Assembly: GCA_011364925.1 (NCBI GenBank)
Contig: RDOA01000016.1
Coordinates: 1 to 64,000, forward strand
Length of the DNA: 64,000 nt
Origin: Promethearchaeota archaeon
GTDB taxonomy: Archaea; Asgardarchaeota; Lokiarchaeia; Sigyniarchaeales; SOKP01
Direction: 5' to 3'
Below the pieces are notes generated by a model that was not told the origin of the DNA, did no database searches, and saw only the letters and a program-made list of their open reading frames with translations. Shown here in pieces: positions 12,006-25,817 of this stretch. A program made the position numbers and the translations under genes. Positions within the stretch are counted from its first letter, which is position 1. Each line of letters starts with the position of its first letter.

Positions 12006-12554
12006 CTATCTATGAATTTCTTTTATTAAAGCATTAAAAGCTTCATCAAGCCCTTGACCTGTTTTTGCTGAAGTGATATAATAGCCAATTATGTTCAGCT
12101 TCTTAACAAGATTTTGAATTTGTAATTTATCTAAACTTTGTTCGTCTACTAAATCGACTTTATTAGCAAAAACAACAATTGGTATCTCACCGCAAAACTG
12201 TTTAACATCTTCATACCATCTTGTAATATGATTAAAACTCCGTTCTCCAAGATTGTTTCTTTCTAAACTATATACAATAATCGCTGCTTTACTAGCTCGA
12301 TAAAAAGAAGGACGTAAGAAATGAAAATCATCTTGTCCCGCAATATCCCAAAATATTAATTCAAATTTATATCCATCGACTTCCGTCTTATAGTTAGTGA
12401 GTTGAGCACCTATCGTTTTAATATAATCAGTTTGGAAGGTTCCTTGAGTAAATCTTTGAAGTAACGACGTTTTCCCAACGCTCCCATCTCCTATAATAGT
12501 AACTTTAATTTTCAATTTCTTCTTTGTAGGTTCTTCTTCCAAACTAAAACACAC
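12006..12554 (-). CDS. Rab/Ras-like small GTPase with canonical G boxes
   Basis: G1 GDGSVGKTS, G2 YIKTIG, G3 WDIAGQ, G4 NKVD, G5 TSAK. Confidence 0.93.
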   Translation of the reverse strand: MCFSLEEEPTKKKLKIKVTIIGDGSVGKTSLLQRFTQGTFQTDYIKTIGAQLTNYKTEVDGYKFELIFWDIAGQDDFHFLRPSFYRASKAAIIVYSLERNNLGERSFNHITRWYEDVKQFCGEIPIVVFANKVDLVDEQSLDKLQIQNLVKKLNIIGYYITSAKTGQGLDEAFNALIKEIHR

Positions 12555-12615
12555 ACATATAAATTCCTTTTACTTTCAAGTATAATTAGGTATTTCTAAA
12601 TATAAAGCTTTAGAA

Positions 12616-15090
12616 TTAGGAGCTTTCAATATCTGTCAAAAATATGTCCGCAATAATTAACCACTTCTTTTTGAGTTCGTAATCGCTGAAGCATTTGTTT
12701 GTATATTCTTTTCCTTTCTTTAGATATTCAGTAGCTTGTTGGAATTCACCAACCTCCTTGAAACAAATACCAAGTTTAATGTATGTTTGATAGATAAACC
12801 ATTCGTTACTACTTAATTCAATTGCTTTTTGAAATTGTTGAGCTGCTTTTTCGTATTCTTCATAATTCATCAAAATTTCTCCATAAGAATCGTAAAATGC
12901 ACCATTTTCTTTCTCGGTTTCAATAAGTTCCTCAAGAAGTTTCAGTGCCTCTTCTTTCTTGTCTACGTATTGATACCAATAAGCTTTAAAACTACGTAAC
13001 TCATTATCCTCAGGATTTTTATCAAGTAATTCCTCAACTATTTTAAATCCTTTATCTAAATCTCCTAACAATTTGTACACCGAGGCTTTCTTCATCTGAA
13101 GGTCCTTCTCAATTTTCGGAAACAACTCTAACATCTCATCGAGCAAATCGAGCAGCACTAAATATTCGTTAAAATACAAAAGGATGGCACTCTTGGTTTG
13201 ATAGAACTCAACCTTATTTGGTACGATATCAATAGCTTTATTAATTAAATCGACCGATTCTTCGTATTTATTTGACTCGAGTAATACCCTACTTTTTAAC
13301 ATAAATAATAATGCTCTATTAACATTATAGGAATCCATTGCTATCGCTTTGTCAAGATCCTTTAAGCCTGGATCTTGATTTGCTTTTTCAGCGTCAAATT
13401 TGTATATAAAGTTATACGCAAGTACGATCCCCCTAGTCGCGTGAGAAAGAGCGTGTTCAGGGAACTTCCAGATAATTTCGTTCCCTATCTCTAATGCATG
13501 ATTGAAATCTCCAATAGTAAGGCTTGAAAATGCTGCAAGTAAGGAAAAGAGAACTAAAAGTTGGTCTTCATCGCGCGATAATTCTAGTTCTGCGTTTATC
13601 AATTTTAACACATCTTCATGCATGTTCAAAAAACCCAAAATGGTCGCTTTAACGATTATAAGAACACTATCGTATTCAGATGATTCAATGGTATCTTCTA
13701 TACTTTCGAGAGCTTTTACATATTCTTTGTCGTCTATTAGTCTTTGGCATTCTTCATTTTGATTCACTAATTTCTTTTCGTAGTAAGGTTGGAGTAATTC
13801 TAATAACACGGTATCTAACTGATAATTTATTTCACTCTGTCCTATGAATTGATATTGTAAATCTTCGGGACTTCTTGATTGATATACATCTATCATGTTC
13901 TGCCATATAATTGCGTCTAATTTGTCGTAAGTTTCTTTAAGTTCCTCCTTTTTCTCGATTTTGTAGGCTAAATACTTAATGTAACTTGGCAAGAATCGTC
14001 TTAAAGAATCTCGAAGAGCTTCCTTGAATATATATCCACATATATCGTCTAAAACCGCCTTTTCGACGTTTAAGGCGTTAAACTCTCTTGAAAACAACCT
14101 ATTGAGGTAAGTTAGCTTAGTAATGTGGTTTTCCGTTATAGTTCGAAGCATTGATTCCACCTTTTCATCCTCCTGAAAAAAATACACTACATCTGGTGAG
14201 GGTTCCAATGTGAAGAATTTAATGGGATAAATTTGGTTCTCTACAATCTCATCGATGTAATACTCTAGTTTTGATTGTTTTATTTCATAATTGTTCGCAA
14301 AATCTTTAAGAGATATAAATTCAGGGTAGTGATCGGGGTGGTTAATGGAAAGATATAAAATTATTTTTTCAAAATCAGTTTGGTCCGTTAACATAGACTT
14401 AACTCTCTCGTAATCAAGTTTCAAGATTGTTTCAAGATATCGAAATTGAATGTTTTCATCATTCACATGATAATCAGTAAAAAATTTTATTGTCTTTTTA
14501 GTAATTTCGTCAATCCGTTTACTTTCTTCCTCTAAAATTGACTGTCGATCTAAATCATAGTTTTGTAGCATTTTCGAATATTCAATTTTACCCGCATTGG
14601 TTATCTTGTACTCTTTATTCTCTCTTATTATCAATGCTTTATTGAGTAGGATGTTCATTTTTTTTGAAAGTGATGATTGATTTATCGCTAGAGGAGGCTC
14701 AAGAAAATTTGACCACTTACACACGCTATTGTTATATACCATGTAAAGAATCCAATCTTCATAGTTTCTACGTCGCGTAATAACTCCAGGAGGGTAGTTC
14801 AATTTTTTAGGCTTTCCATGAGCCCTAGAAATTTCATTAAACCGTTTTCGCCCTTCCTTTGATATTTGATAATGTCCGTATTTATATTTTATGACATAAT
14901 TCTTGCTTTTTAACAGGGTTAAGTGTTTAGAAAGAGTAGATTCTGTAATGTTTAGTGGATCTTGCGTAAAATCAGACCATTGACAATGCTCATTATTAGC
15001 TAGCATCCATAGGATAATGTGTTCAAAATCTTTACGGTGTATTTTAAAATCTTTATAAAGTTCTTCGGGAGGATAATTAGTATAGCTCAT
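12616..15090 (-). CDS. Protein with tandem N-terminal winged-HTH repeats and C-terminal TPR repeats
   Basis: Two ~80-aa repeats (NYPP...IL.M..NN..C.WS.F...PL.I..S.LSK...Y.I...G). C-terminal TPR-like helices (YDSYGEILM...AAQQFQKAIEL). Likely start MSYTNYPP. Confidence 0.78.
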   Translation of the reverse strand: MSYTNYPPEELYKDFKIHRKDFEHIILWMLANNEHCQWSDFTQDPLNITESTLSKHLTLLKSKNYVIKYKYGHYQISKEGRKRFNEISRAHGKPKKLNYPPGVITRRRNYEDWILYMVYNNSVCKWSNFLEPPLAINQSSLSKKMNILLNKALIIRENKEYKITNAGKIEYSKMLQNYDLDRQSILEEESKRIDEITKKTIKFFTDYHVNDENIQFRYLETILKLDYERVKSMLTDQTDFEKIILYLSINHPDHYPEFISLKDFANNYEIKQSKLEYYIDEIVENQIYPIKFFTLEPSPDVVYFFQEDEKVESMLRTITENHITKLTYLNRLFSREFNALNVEKAVLDDICGYIFKEALRDSLRRFLPSYIKYLAYKIEKKEELKETYDKLDAIIWQNMIDVYQSRSPEDLQYQFIGQSEINYQLDTVLLELLQPYYEKKLVNQNEECQRLIDDKEYVKALESIEDTIESSEYDSVLIIVKATILGFLNMHEDVLKLINAELELSRDEDQLLVLFSLLAAFSSLTIGDFNHALEIGNEIIWKFPEHALSHATRGIVLAYNFIYKFDAEKANQDPGLKDLDKAIAMDSYNVNRALLFMLKSRVLLESNKYEESVDLINKAIDIVPNKVEFYQTKSAILLYFNEYLVLLDLLDEMLELFPKIEKDLQMKKASVYKLLGDLDKGFKIVEELLDKNPEDNELRSFKAYWYQYVDKKEEALKLLEELIETEKENGAFYDSYGEILMNYEEYEKAAQQFQKAIELSSNEWFIYQTYIKLGICFKEVGEFQQATEYLKKGKEYTNKCFSDYELKKKWLIIADIFLTDIESS

Positions 15091-15275
15091 AATTTGTCTC
15101 CTTTTTCTTTTCCATGTTGAATTGCTCAAATAAAAAATAGGCATCGAACTATTTAAACTATTCCATACTTGCTAAAGTATTCGAACTTTTCTTAAAGTTT
15201 CGCAATAAAAACTATTTAATCAAGTTTATTATATTTTCTAGTAACAAACAAAATAGGTTATGAAGTGGAAAAATC

Positions 15276-20640: not shown

Positions 20641-21431
20641 CTTTTTGACTTATTTATTTTTTTCCACTTCCAAGCGTATTTTATAGTATCCTGATTACAT
20701 GTTGCTACGCAAGTCCCACATAAGATACAATCAGCAGCGTACATATCTCCCGAATTTACTAACTCTTGGACATCCAATCCCATCACGCACGCTTTAGAGC
20801 ATTGTTTGCATTGAGTGCATTTCTCGGGATCAGCCTCTAGATGTAATGATGGATATCTTAGAAGGTTCATTATTTTAGTTCCGATAATTCCTAAAACACC
20901 CATTGGACAGGCGTAATTACAGAATGAACGATTGCCTCCAACTAATCCAAAAAGGATAACTACAGAGCTAATAATTCCGAAATAAAAAACTAATTGACCG
21001 ATTTGAAGTTCATTCCACGATACTATACCAGTTGGGTCTCCCGGTGTAGGATAATACGGGCTAAAACCATTGATATACCCTAACGATAGAATAGGACCTA
21101 GAGCCACAAAGACAATCCATATTATAAACACAATGTATTTTATTTTTCTTCTTTTATTTTTCTTAGACGCATCTAATTTTTTTGGTACCGCGTATCCTAG
21201 AAGTTCTTGAGTCGCTCCCCATTGGCATCCATAGGCACAGAAAGCTCTTCCTACGAAAAATGAAGATATAAACCATATTCCAAAGATTAAAAAGCTCATT
21301 GACATATAACCCTCAAACCCTCCCATAACTATAAGAACGGGAGACATCCAGTTAAATGTGATTGGTAATACAAAAAACCATAAGAAAGTTAGAAGCTTTC
21401 GAAATCTAAGCAATCTCTTGAATTGTCCCAA
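20637..21431 (-). CDS. Membrane-bound 4Fe-4S protein (NapH/YccM-like)
   Basis: GRAFCAYGC and RSFCNYACPMG motifs; two C-terminal 4Fe-4S motifs; TM helices. Confidence 0.85.
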   Translation of the reverse strand: MGQFKRLLRFRKLLTFLWFFVLPITFNWMSPVLIVMGGFEGYMSMSFLIFGIWFISSFFVGRAFCAYGCQWGATQELLGYAVPKKLDASKKNKRRKIKYIVFIIWIVFVALGPILSLGYINGFSPYYPTPGDPTGIVSWNELQIGQLVFYFGIISSVVILFGLVGGNRSFCNYACPMGVLGIIGTKIMNLLRYPSLHLEADPEKCTQCKQCSKACVMGLDVQELVNSGDMYAADCILCGTCVATCNQDTIKYAWKWKKINKSKS

Positions 21432-21954
21432 TTGAATTGCCTCCGTTTAAATTTTCTAATAATTCTGATGCCCAAGCTTTGACCCTAACTTTATTTCCAG
21501 TGAATTCTTGTTCTGCCTGATCTTGTGAAGTAAACTGAAATTTTATTTGTCCAATAACATCAGAACCTTTTAAAGCTTTCTTGAATCGTTCCATTGCCTT
21601 ATCACCTGATCCAGCGCTACAAGTTAAGAGCGCTACTTTTTTCTCGACTAGATTAAACATCGATAAAAAGGAACGTATTGGTGGGGTGATCGTCCAAGCC
21701 CAAACCGGAGTCCCTATAATCACTAGGTCATATTCCAATGGATTAACTTCAATAGGTTTTAATTTAGGTTTTATTTTCATTGTAGCTTGAGCCCCTCCCC
21801 ATACAAATTTCATCCCACTGTCGGGATTTAATTCTTTAATGGGCTGTATTTCAAGCAGGTCAGCTTCCATTGCATCTTTTAAGGTTTCTGCAATAAATCT
21901 CGTATTTCCCGTAAGGGAATAATACACTATCAATACTTTTTTCATTTTTAACAC
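21406..21954 (-). CDS. Flavodoxin
   Basis: YYSLTGNT phosphate loop; IGTPVWAW. Confidence 0.9.
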   Translation of the reverse strand: MLKMKKVLIVYYSLTGNTRFIAETLKDAMEADLLEIQPIKELNPDSGMKFVWGGAQATMKIKPKLKPIEVNPLEYDLVIIGTPVWAWTITPPIRSFLSMFNLVEKKVALLTCSAGSGDKAMERFKKALKGSDVIGQIKFQFTSQDQAEQEFTGNKVRVKAWASELLENLNGGNSIGTIQEIA

Positions 21955-21960
21955 CTCAAT

Positions 21961-22644
21961 TTATTTTTCTCTTGGTTTTAAACCTTCAGCTAAAATTTCG
22001 AAAGTAAAATCTATTATTTCGTCGAAATCCAATCCACGTCTTTTTACCATTTCAGAATTCTGCAATAAATCACTAATTATACCGCTTGTAATCGTTGAGA
22101 GGATATATCCGATCAAATTTGGATCTTTATCTATTCTTATAGCTTTAATTTTTATTGCGTCTCCTAAAATCTTGACAAATAGATCACGGTATTTATAATT
22201 TGAATTTAAATATTCCTTTTCTATTTGCGAAAGGCTTTCCTTAGGTTTAAAACTTACTTCAGGAATCTTTACGGCAATATCGTGGAATATAGACGAATAT
22301 GCGGGATAATCCTTGGTAAATTCATAAAACGCATAACCAATTGCCATAAGTTGGCTCAACCCAGGTTTCTCTTTGCTTGTAAATCTCTCAGTATATTCAC
22401 AAATTAATTCATAAGCTTTAATCCCTATAGCTAGATACAATTCGTCTTTAGATTTAAAATAATTATATAGCGTGCCTTTACTAAATTCAGATTGACGAGC
22501 TATCTCATCCATCGTAGTTTTTTCATACCCTTCAGAGAGAAAAAGCCTTTCAGTGGCCTCTAATATGATTTTTTTTCTTAATTCGGTTTCTCTCTGCTTT
22601 CGACTTTTTCTTATCTGCTTTTGATTATTCAAATTAATCACCAA
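21961..22644 (-). CDS. TetR/AcrR-family transcriptional regulator
   Basis: GYEKTTMDEIA...SKGTLYNYFKSKDEL. Confidence 0.92.
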   Translation of the reverse strand: MVINLNNQKQIRKSRKQRETELRKKIILEATERLFLSEGYEKTTMDEIARQSEFSKGTLYNYFKSKDELYLAIGIKAYELICEYTERFTSKEKPGLSQLMAIGYAFYEFTKDYPAYSSIFHDIAVKIPEVSFKPKESLSQIEKEYLNSNYKYRDLFVKILGDAIKIKAIRIDKDPNLIGYILSTITSGIISDLLQNSEMVKRRGLDFDEIIDFTFEILAEGLKPREK

Positions 22645-22672
22645 AATAAATAATGACTAATAGTTCAGTTTT

Positions 22673-22747
22673 TGACCAAGAGTCATTTAATTAAAATATA
22701 GTTAATTTTCTATTTAAACTTTTGGTTCAGAAAATGACCATCGGTCA
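22673..22747 (-). promoter_or_regulatory. Two TGAC-N5-GTCA palindromes flanking a TATA box; candidate TetR operators
   Basis: TGACCAAGAGTCA (22673-22685) and TGACCATCGGTCA (22735-22747); minus-strand TTTAAATA at 22718-22711. Confidence 0.65.
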
Positions 22748-22777
22748 AATATCATTAAAACATTAAAATTAGGAGAA

Positions 22778-23428
22778 TTAGTCGATTTTATAACTGTTTT
22801 CTTCCCAAGCTTTTCTCATTATGGAATTCTGTTTTAAATATTCATCAATCACTTCTTTTGAGACATTGTTTAATGGGCAACTAAAATTAGGACATTTTGA
22901 ACAACTTAAGAAGTGCATTGAGATGAGCCATACTACCGTAAAAATCAAAGATACCGCAAAATAGATGTACAAACCCACAAAAAGGAAAAGAGCTAGAGGA
23001 ATCCCCGCAAACAAGGTAATACCAATTATAAACTGAACCCTTTCAGAAACAGTCATGGGAGCGGGATTATACTTCCACGCTTTATAAAGCCCATAATTAG
23101 CATAGCATTTTAATGATTTTTCATCTTCAAAAGCATAATAAGGACAGTGACTACAGAGGATTTTATTCTCCCATACCTGGAAAAAAAATATTAAGAATCC
23201 AATATAGGCTATAGAGAATATAATTAACAGCGGAAAATCAATTTTACCAATAATAAAACCAAATGCTAAACCTAAAACCAACGTAACCCAAACGCCTAAA
23301 ACAGGAAGTATAAAGTACACAGTATCTTTAATGTTAAAGGTGCACATCAATTTACCATTTACAGTGCAATCAGAACATGCTGATTCGTCAAGGTTGCAGA
23401 TATTTCTTCTTGCATTTTTTTCTTTCAT
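22778..23428 (-). CDS. Cys-rich 4-TM membrane protein of unknown function
   Basis: CSDC, CSHCPYY and CSKCPNFSCPLN flanking hydrophobic segments. Confidence 0.65.
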   Translation of the reverse strand: MKEKNARRNICNLDESACSDCTVNGKLMCTFNIKDTVYFILPVLGVWVTLVLGLAFGFIIGKIDFPLLIIFSIAYIGFLIFFFQVWENKILCSHCPYYAFEDEKSLKCYANYGLYKAWKYNPAPMTVSERVQFIIGITLFAGIPLALFLFVGLYIYFAVSLIFTVVWLISMHFLSCSKCPNFSCPLNNVSKEVIDEYLKQNSIMRKAWEENSYKID

Positions 23429-23449
23429 AATACATTCTCTTCTTTATTA

Positions 23450-23923
23450 CTAAGATAAATAAACAATCTTCCTTGCTTTCATCGGATCTCTCATTTTTAG
23501 CAAGGGAACGGCGACGCCATAAGTTGAAATTTTATTAGGTATTTTAATACATATCCAAATATAATCCTGTGGGAGGTCCCTTTTATCAGAATGTTTCATG
23601 TATTTGGAATAAATCATTCTTGCTTGTTCGTTATCTTTAGGTTTGATCTCTGCTGTTGTTGTGAAGTATATTTCCGCTGGAGGAGCTGGAATGAGTTTGT
23701 GGAAAAGATTTTTTCTTATAGGGATTGTTACGGCGACTAGCTTATTTTTCCTAACATTATTTGCTTTTAAGGTATTTTCTCCCGTTTGACAAATGATAAG
23801 ATTACCGTCGCTTTGATAAACCATAACTGAACTGTTGGGGATATTCTTTTCGTCAGCTGTAGCTAATACTAACCACATATTTGATTTTATGAGCTTTTTA
23901 ACTTCTTGTTTTAAATCTTTCAT
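23450..23923 (-). CDS. Pyridoxamine 5'-phosphate oxidase-like split-barrel protein
   Basis: VLATADEKNIP...TLKANNVRKNKLVAVTI. Confidence 0.72.
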   Translation of the reverse strand: MKDLKQEVKKLIKSNMWLVLATADEKNIPNSSVMVYQSDGNLIICQTGENTLKANNVRKNKLVAVTIPIRKNLFHKLIPAPPAEIYFTTTAEIKPKDNEQARMIYSKYMKHSDKRDLPQDYIWICIKIPNKISTYGVAVPLLKMRDPMKARKIVYLS

Positions 23924-23952: not shown

Positions 23953-24573
23953 TTACTTGATCCTTTTTCTCTTGTTTTTCTTCTTCTTTCCAGGGCTTTC
24001 ATGTTCTTTTTCTTTTCGCTTGCTTTTAGGAAGTGTAGGCTCAAACGAGGGTGGACAGCACTCTAACATTATCTTCGAGAGCATTTCAAACATTTTTTCT
24101 ATGTCGCTCCTTGAAGTGATGCTGCACTCAACAAAGCCATTTAAACCGTGTAAATTAGCAAGTATCCTCCCCTCTTCAGAAGTAGCTTGTCTTTTAACTA
24201 CTGAATCCGGAGTAAGCCCAACCGCAATTATAGGGAATTTCTCCTCGTCACCAAGTTCTTTCTTAACTAATGAAAGCCAGAATTCAAGGTTAGTTAGTGA
24301 TGATTTCTCAGTCACATCGTAAACAAATAAACCTCCACGAGCGTGGCTGATATACTTAGGGAGCAAATCTCTAAATCTTCTTTCTCCACTAATGTCCCAG
24401 ACTTGCAATTTCACTTTAAAATTATCTACTGAAAGACTTTTCACTTCGAAATCTACGCCAAGTGAATCTGTTTGTCTAGAAGAAAACAAATTAATCATAT
24501 AATTGTTAGTGAGTGTCTTTTTTCCTTCAGTTTCGTCGCCAAATAATATGATTTTAAAATTAGCATCATACAT
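23953..24573 (-). CDS. Degenerate Rab-like small GTPase with a CC motif and polybasic C-terminal tail
   Basis: FKIILFG, LGVDF, KLQVWD and RFR Rab signatures; G1 GDETEGKKT; G4 and G5 degenerate; tail ...LECCPP...PGKKKKNKRKRIK. Confidence 0.85.
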   Translation of the reverse strand: MYDANFKIILFGDETEGKKTLTNNYMINLFSSRQTDSLGVDFEVKSLSVDNFKVKLQVWDISGERRFRDLLPKYISHARGGLFVYDVTEKSSLTNLEFWLSLVKKELGDEEKFPIIAVGLTPDSVVKRQATSEEGRILANLHGLNGFVECSITSRSDIEKMFEMLSKIMLECCPPSFEPTLPKSKRKEKEHESPGKKKKNKRKRIK

Positions 24574-24667
24574 CGGTTTGGTTACCTCGAATGTATAATA
24601 AATGTATCTTCTTAGTGTATATAACTTTTTATGAAAAACAGTTAATAAAAAAAAAGATATTTAATGT

Positions 24668-25344: not shown

Positions 25345-25748
25345 CTATTGGTCCAAGCCAAATCCATTCTCGATTAATGTTTTTAACATCGCTGAAAACC
25401 TAGCTGCTGGAGCACCGTCTATAATATCGTGATCGAATAAGATCACTGTGTGAAGAACTTCTCTGATTTCAATTTTGTCTTCAATTACTCTGGGTTTTTT
25501 TGTAATAGCCCCTATTGGACTGCTTGTCCAATACATTTCAGTATCCAGCCAGTAAAGGATAAAGACATTCCTTTTTTTAATTTGTACTCTTTTAACAATT
25601 TTCTTCCATCAGTAACATCGAACTCTACTAAACCCTTAACATAATGCTTTTTAATTCCCTCTTCCATAATATCAATAACCATTTTACGATTTTTGGGGAA
25701 CTTTGTTACTTCGTATCTACCAATTGATTTCTTTGTTTTTCTAGCCAT
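25345..25748 (-). pseudogene. 2-oxoacid dehydrogenase E2-type acyltransferase catalytic domain, internally deleted and frameshifted
   Basis: N-part (EFDVT...SLSFTGWILKCIGQAV) joined out of frame to the C-part (IGAITKKP...FDHDIIDGAPAARF); the central part of the domain is missing. Confidence 0.8.
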
Positions 25749-25817
25749 TAAGATCCGCCTGTTGATAATTAATCTTGAAGGAATGATAATATCTCTGTTC
25801 AGTTAAATATCTCGTTT

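Follow-up and report, generated by a model that had tools for sequence, protein, structure and literature searches.

Rab-like GTPases of Asgard archaea, such as Thor-Rab (7EZB), display RabF-type motifs on a small-GTPase fold, bind nucleotide and have no C-terminal cysteine. Surveys describe archaeal Rab-like proteins without a C-terminal extension or polybasic region (PMC4915359, PMC10933270), no polybasic region being found in the archaeal Rab-like family (PMC4915359), and whether Loki GTPases reach membranes by another route was left open (PMC4917890). Among eukaryotic proteins, the class i pseudoGTPases, which include p190RhoGAP pG1, CENP-M, the fungal dynein LIC and AAGAB, combine a GTPase fold with several degraded G motifs and have been shown to be nucleotide-free (PMC5593906, PMC12490416). 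RIT1 and RIT2, which are active Ras-family switches, carry a 35-residue, 42% basic extension without CAAX that binds anionic lipids, and that of RIT1 suffices for membrane localisation (PMC13565119); the tails of K-Ras4B and eukaryotic Rabs have a Pro-rich linker and a Lys run after helix α5, together with CAAX or a terminal CC/CXC. Mutations at the positions of G15 and S17 in Ras, among them the engineered G15A and S17N, lower nucleotide affinity and are used as GEF traps (PMC4905258).

Here we describe a family of Lokiarchaeia proteins that shares the fold, the RabF-type motifs and the missing C-terminal cysteine of the Asgard Rab-like GTPases, but in which G1, G4 and G5 are degenerate and a basic tail of 35–44 residues is conserved. 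Our literature search, outside which most subscription papers lay, returned no paper describing the family, nor any on Rab-like pseudoGTPases of Asgard archaea. The family is a conserved counter-example, in sequence, to the tail-less archaeal Rab-like proteins; it offers a small, directly testable protein and would allow a test of lipid-free anchoring with an origin separate from the eukaryotic one. Its weight is limited by its being accessory, present in part of one genus, and convergent rather than ancestral, and it says nothing direct on the origin of eukaryotic hypervariable tails.

The gene lies in the window, the whole 64,000-nucleotide stretch of Promethearchaeota DNA analysed here, and its product, P0001, matches the Pfam Ras family with E=5.7e-31. 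An earlier sequence-only reading had described it as a Rab-like pseudo-GTPase, and each motif on which that description was built was found: GDETEGKKT at G1, Ser37 at G2, DISGE at G3, LTPD at G4 and SIT at G5, the RabF-type signatures LGVDF, KLQVWD and RFR, a CC pair (172–173), a Pro-rich linker, and 9 Lys or Arg among the last 11 residues. By alignment, the F1–F3-like stretches are kept and the F4-like stretch is changed at 75–77. The P-loop lysine K18, the G3 residues D60 and G63, and the G4 aspartate D123 are retained. An AlphaFold2 model built from 63 homologs shows six strands and five helices, with low confidence at switch I (31–39) and pLDDT below 50 for tail residues 179–206, which are predicted to be disordered. 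The model aligns with Rab43 over 161 residues (Z 18.4, rmsd 2.6), and the nearest solved structures are Rabs and the Thorarchaeota Rab 7EZB, the latter being the top Foldseek match. A protein search returned 73 further near-full-length clusters, 62–97% identical, which with P0001 make 74 family members, and some fragments; close relatives are labelled Promethearchaeota or Lokiarchaeota.

Features of the pseudo-GTPase locus and of a related remnant; positions are those of the window unless a locus is named
Feature	Coordinates	Strand	Remarks
Rab-like pseudo-GTPase gene (P0001)	23953..24573	-	206-aa ORF; Pfam Ras match
G domain, residues 1-171	24061..24573	-	small-GTPase fold complete; AlphaFold2 pTM 0.76
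Degenerate P-loop, residues 12-20	24514..24540	-	acidic residues in the middle; K18 invariant; K/R in place of the Mg-ligand Thr
Interswitch and switch II, residues 39-74, with triad F42/W59/Y74	24352..24459	-	surface common to canonical parent; candidate partner-binding face
Degenerate G4, residues 119-123	24205..24219	-	Asn and Lys gone, acid kept
Cys172-Cys173, end of helix α5	24055..24060	-	15/74 members; not a prenylation motif
35-residue C-terminal extension	23956..24060	-	Pro-rich linker, then 14 K/R; net +10
Shine-Dalgarno-like GAGGT	24584..24588	-	11-15 nt before ATG; consensus match only
Upstream gene, 168 aa, N-terminal hydrophobic helix	24668..25174	-	co-directional; directly upstream in 16/33 loci
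Downstream PNPOx-like, Cys-rich membrane protein, TetR and flavodoxin-like genes	21406..23923	-	usual neighbours; combinations vary
Broken 3' pseudo-GTPase remnant	L128:1301-1548 (G146:C44)	-	frameshift and stop; 5' part missing; adjoins PNPOx-like gene

Phylogenetic trees nest the family, on a long stem with 100/100 support, inside a clade of tail-less Lokiarchaeia Rab-like GTPases, here termed the parent, which are 174–177 residues long, have a canonical P-loop and are found across the family of genomes. The family falls in the same place when the trees are restricted to the first 110 residues, a span that excludes G4 and G5; deeper forks have moderate support only. Constraining the family to group with eukaryotic Rabs lowers the log-likelihood by 64.8 units and is rejected by the AU test (p=0.00055; LG+G4; 43 rows, from which mosaic and some redundant sequences were excluded), which rules out descent within, or as sister to, the eukaryotic Rab clade. 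On this placement, the pseudo-GTPase stems from a recent duplication, confined to one genus, of a very strongly conserved Rab-like GTPase of Lokiarchaeia; the nested position and the AU rejection thus mark the tail as gained recently and by convergence rather than as a precursor of the eukaryotic hypervariable region. The canonical parent already has the Gln-to-Glu change seen in G3 of P0001, and it does not count as a lesion. The family points to duplication as a source of pseudo-GTPases in Asgard archaea, as in eukaryotes. Folding the parent from its single sequence gave a poor model (pLDDT 46), which was left out of the comparisons.

We tentatively propose that the family members are nucleotide-free adaptors resembling class i pseudoGTPases, with their tail on a polyanion, most likely a membrane, an account that we consider plausible while placing it somewhat short of probable. 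The nucleotide site would be empty, with K/R19 possibly paired with D60 in the Mg site; the conserved Rab effector/GEF face would bind a protein partner constitutively, as a scaffold or as a decoy for partners of the parent; and the disordered tail would hold the protein electrostatically on a polyanion, without lipidation. The sequence-only reading had likewise suggested a nucleotide-independent or non-guanine scaffold, and the family alignments favour a probably nucleotide-independent one with a polybasic tail that is under selection. Against the mechanism stand the absence of the gene from 35 of the 42 genomes of the genus and its decay in G146, a close relative. A predicted complex with the canonical parent, GTP and Mg scored 0.01 and carries no weight either way.

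The tail is a property of the family. It has a median length of 38 residues, a net charge of +12 and a Lys:Arg ratio of 4:1, and 67 of the 74 members contain at least 7 Lys or Arg within 11 residues. Such tails are rare in the genome: of the 3287 ORFs that are 100 residues or longer, only 3 have at least 8 Lys or Arg in 11 within their last 25 residues, and none of the 56 other matches to the family profile in the genome, all GTPase paralogs, has such a tail. Searches of the ESM Atlas with the tail returned unnamed low-complexity look-alikes only. With 40% basic residues and no CAAX, the tail of P0001 resembles the RIT extensions in length, composition and the lack of a lipidation motif; kinship is not implied, the RIT proteins are active switches, and lipid binding of the P0001 tail is a prediction. 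It also resembles the tails of K-Ras4B and eukaryotic Rabs in its Pro-rich linker and its Lys run after helix α5, but their CAAX or terminal CC/CXC is absent from the family and the origins are independent.

A Lys-rich tail binds any polyanion. By analogy with RIT1/2, the target may be the anionic lipid head groups of the single cell membrane, a suggestion on which we are evenly divided; a hydrophobic patch of 2–4 residues precedes the Lys run in 51 of 67 full-length members, but its absence from P0001 counts against the proposal. The same pseudo-GTPase could instead place its tail on nucleic acid (DNA, RNA or the ribosome) and so tether a partner from a GTPase pathway to the nucleoid or ribosome. 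A tail rich in Lys, disordered and mostly polar is what one would expect in that case, P0001 has no hydrophobic patch, and the parent gene (G000:C20:37973-38503, or L125:1574-2104, in the genome studied here) adjoins a winged-helix-like gene in both genomes inspected. That neighbour, however, is convergent with the parent and not co-transcribed, and its HTH matches are weak, below the cut-off; the excess of Lys over Arg and the patch found in most members would fit a bilayer better. We regard a nucleic-acid target as unlikely, yet as the strongest of the competing explanations.

An acidic protein surface would be a third kind of partner for the tail, either the protein's own G domain, in self-association or autoinhibition, or an acidic partner, with no membrane role. 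The family G domain has a median net charge of −7 (−13 to −4), compared with −3 for the whole parent protein, so that the tail faces a domain of opposite sign, and the P-loop is newly acidic in the family. The model shows no contact between the disordered residues and the domain, though, and many paralogs are mildly acidic too, which leaves this explanation rather improbable.

The nucleotide site has been altered at several places. P0001 departs from the G1 consensus GxxxxGK[S/T], reading GKK; the Thr that serves as Mg ligand, position 19, is Lys or Arg in 72 of the 74 members, and the P-loop glycine G17 is Ala in 27. At G2, Thr occurs in 47 members, Ser, as in P0001, in 16 and Ala in 9. The G4 Asn is replaced by a hydrophobic residue in all 74 and its Lys is kept in 2, while the acid at 123 persists as Asp in 28 and Glu in 43. 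The G5 Ala is Ile or Val in the common variants, and the family retains the G3 consensus DxxG and has lost the consensus [N/T]KxD of G4 and SAK of G5. Positions 17 and 19 are those changed in the engineered Ras G15A and S17N, here altered naturally; S17N introduces Asn, whereas the family introduces a basic residue, and no cognate GEF is known for it. In a comparison of 72 family members with 24 parent sequences, the positions invariant in the parent and variable in the family include the nucleotide and metal contacts G17, T19, T37, K121, D123 and S151–K153. Judged by these replacements, the family probably binds GTP and GDP weakly or not at all. IFT22 is a GTP binder that lacks G4, and IFT22 complexes co-purify with GTP.

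A residual capacity for phosphate or nucleotide is possible because K18 (74/74), D60 (73/74) and G63 (invariant) are kept almost without exception and 71 of 74 members have Asp or Glu at 123. These residues, the Thr that 47 members keep at G2, and the recurrence of a related replacement G4 in a Lokiarchaeia group of 49 rows would suit an atypical G protein of class ii/iii that binds GTP weakly and independently of Mg, or a non-guanine phosphate ligand, with K/R19 in place of the metal. Several independent lesions occur together, however, G17A among them; conservation within the family is lowest in the G4 and G5 loops (0.72–0.74); and acidic P-loop residues would be expected to repel phosphate. 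We accordingly hold such an atypical ligand binder to be improbable, on a par with the acidic-surface explanation, and, from the modelled small-GTPase fold and the degraded G motifs of a conserved protein, assign the family provisionally to class i, for which a role as scaffold or adaptor would be expected, noting that, unlike the eukaryotic examples, it keeps the P-loop Lys and DxxG.

The opposite pattern is seen on the switch side. G39–L47, K55–Q57, W59, D60, G63, R66–R68, L71, P72 and Y74 are invariant in parent and family alike. Rabs use an F/W/Y triad for effectors and exchange factors, and from these Rab surfaces we infer that the switch face would be the partner-binding site; AAGAB, in contrast, uses the opposite face. 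Twenty differences between family and parent are fixed, including I61, S62 and I75–S76–H77 in switch II; they argue against a pure decoy and indicate, at the level of sequence, that the surface is also retuned relative to the parent. In a specific version of the adaptor, an archaeon would have independently evolved a natural dominant-negative Rab-like protein on the membrane: lacking nucleotide, it would capture the parent's exchange factor or effector at the cell membrane, where its lipid-free basic tail would anchor it. We see this as an unlikely prospect. If true, the family would provide a ready-made bait for regulators of Asgard Rab-like GTPases and would mean that Asgard archaea organise their GTPase circuits on membranes with no need of prenylation.

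Selection on the gene is purifying but relaxed. Over 26 coding sequences, median pairwise Nei–Gojobori dN/dS is 0.27 in the G domain, rising to 0.45 in the tail. Within the same six genomes, dN/dS is 0.285 for the pseudo-GTPase, 0.027 for the parent, a tenfold ratio that is approximate because parent dS is near saturation, and 0.14–0.27 for neighbouring genes. The G domains of the 26 sequences contain zero stops. The tree carries about 5 substitutions per four-fold site, from just 37 sites, and each tail has about 5 positions prone to nonsense changes, so that a neutral tail would be expected to accumulate about 26 of them; about 2 truncation events are seen, one in the lineage L009/L039/L040, which lost the distal Lys run, and one in L022.

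These figures bear on the possibility that the gene is a slowly decaying duplicate of little or no function, read through a lost stop into A-rich DNA, and on the private read-through or neutral decay that the sequence-only reading had named as its own refutation. The raised dN/dS, the patchy presence, the broken copy in G146 and the many other degenerate copies of the parent speak for decay, as does the tail DNA, whose A-richness gives Lys in all frames (0.54, 0.46, 0.39) and for that reason makes a reading-frame test of Lys content weak. The tail may at first have come from such DNA. Yet dN/dS, taken over about 5 substitutions per synonymous site, stays far under 1 and close to the values of neighbouring genes, the tail is kept in orthologs with its length held and few truncations, and in-frame read-through yields at least 14 Lys or Arg in 35 codons for only 6 of 2892 genes. 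At nearly all the ortholog loci inspected, the GAGGT motif is kept and an A/T-rich box precedes it; a scan for sigma-70 promoters, a model unsuited to archaea, gave chance-level results. Private read-through and neutral decay are ruled out on these grounds, and decay more broadly is largely refuted and very unlikely.

The proposal that P0001 bears a Cys-lipidated K-Ras- or Rab-like anchor, a "proto-hypervariable" forerunner of the eukaryotic region, is scarcely credible: CC does occur in 15 of the 74 members, on more than one branch, but the position is RS in 47, it ends helix α5 33 residues before the C-terminus, none of the members has Cys among its final 10 residues or a terminal CC/CXC prenylation motif, a prenyltransferase-alpha repeat was not found in the genome, which is scored 100% complete, in agreement with published surveys (PMC4917890, PMC10933270), and the family, nested among tail-less paralogs and excluded from the eukaryotic Rab clade, occurs in 7 of 400 genomes, all of one genus. 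A search for DHHC enzymes gave zero matches in the genome and equally zero in control genomes, and so carries no information.

Family members were found in 7 of the 42 genomes of their own Lokiarchaeia genus, and a profile search of 400 genomes of the phylum found the family in none outside that genus; many of the genomes searched are incomplete, and kin are not independent. The search left a clean gap, members scoring at least 318 bits and the next paralog at most 232. G146, scored 100% complete, has only the broken 3' remnant, at the same site. From the patchy presence and this remnant, the gene is therefore accessory. For several genome pairs (loci L039-L044 versus L120-L125), synonymous distances of the pseudo-GTPase gene are well below those of the parent (0.54 versus 1.55 for G126-G125), hinting at exchange of the region within the genus, with saturation noise as another possible cause.

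The neighbours of the pseudo-GTPase gene point to no pathway, and no regulator or partner gene was found in the gene neighbourhood. The 168-residue protein encoded upstream matches unnamed, mostly Promethearchaeota clusters in the ESM Atlas and has a dN/dS of 0.27, similar to that of the pseudo-GTPase. Elsewhere in the window, positions 25354-25772 (minus strand) hold an internally deleted remnant of a 279-residue gene, in which residues 1-86 are joined to 225-278 of the intact L033 homolog; its C-terminal piece is similar to the 2-oxoacid dehydrogenase acyltransferase motif. At 12006-15144 (minus strand), an 842-residue winged-helix/TPR protein is followed by a canonical Rab-like GTPase, and G127 has a similar pair (L042:9033-12120) about 2.4 kb downstream of its pseudo-GTPase gene.

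Degenerate Rab-like domains are also seen beyond the family. A wider set (P0083-P0187), of about 36 rows at the 50% cluster level besides the pseudo-GTPase family, comprises Lokiarchaeia-type domains with eroded P-loops and a replaced G4 consisting of Gly, two hydrophobic residues, often Pro, and then an acid. Together with the pseudo-GTPase family, these are G4-degenerate copies of one parent, and several look mosaic. The N-terminal halves of the mosaics group with different canonical paralogs (P0161/P0172 with C59, P0159 with C92, P0121 with C78), while from G4 onward they are like the degenerate type, which suggests that paralogs have recombined; a tree of the C-terminal halves gave no clean resolution of this. 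At G000:C108:2914-5627 (L126), two adjacent Rab-like paralogs of 547 and 259 residues have altered P-loops and C-terminal extensions. P0231 (L127:1203-1826), on a single 2-kb contig, has canonical G motifs and a Lys-rich 35-residue extension and groups with Lokiarchaeia paralogs, and P0182 and P0105, other Asgard-like GTPases, combine eroded P-loops with basic ends; basic tails may have arisen more than once.
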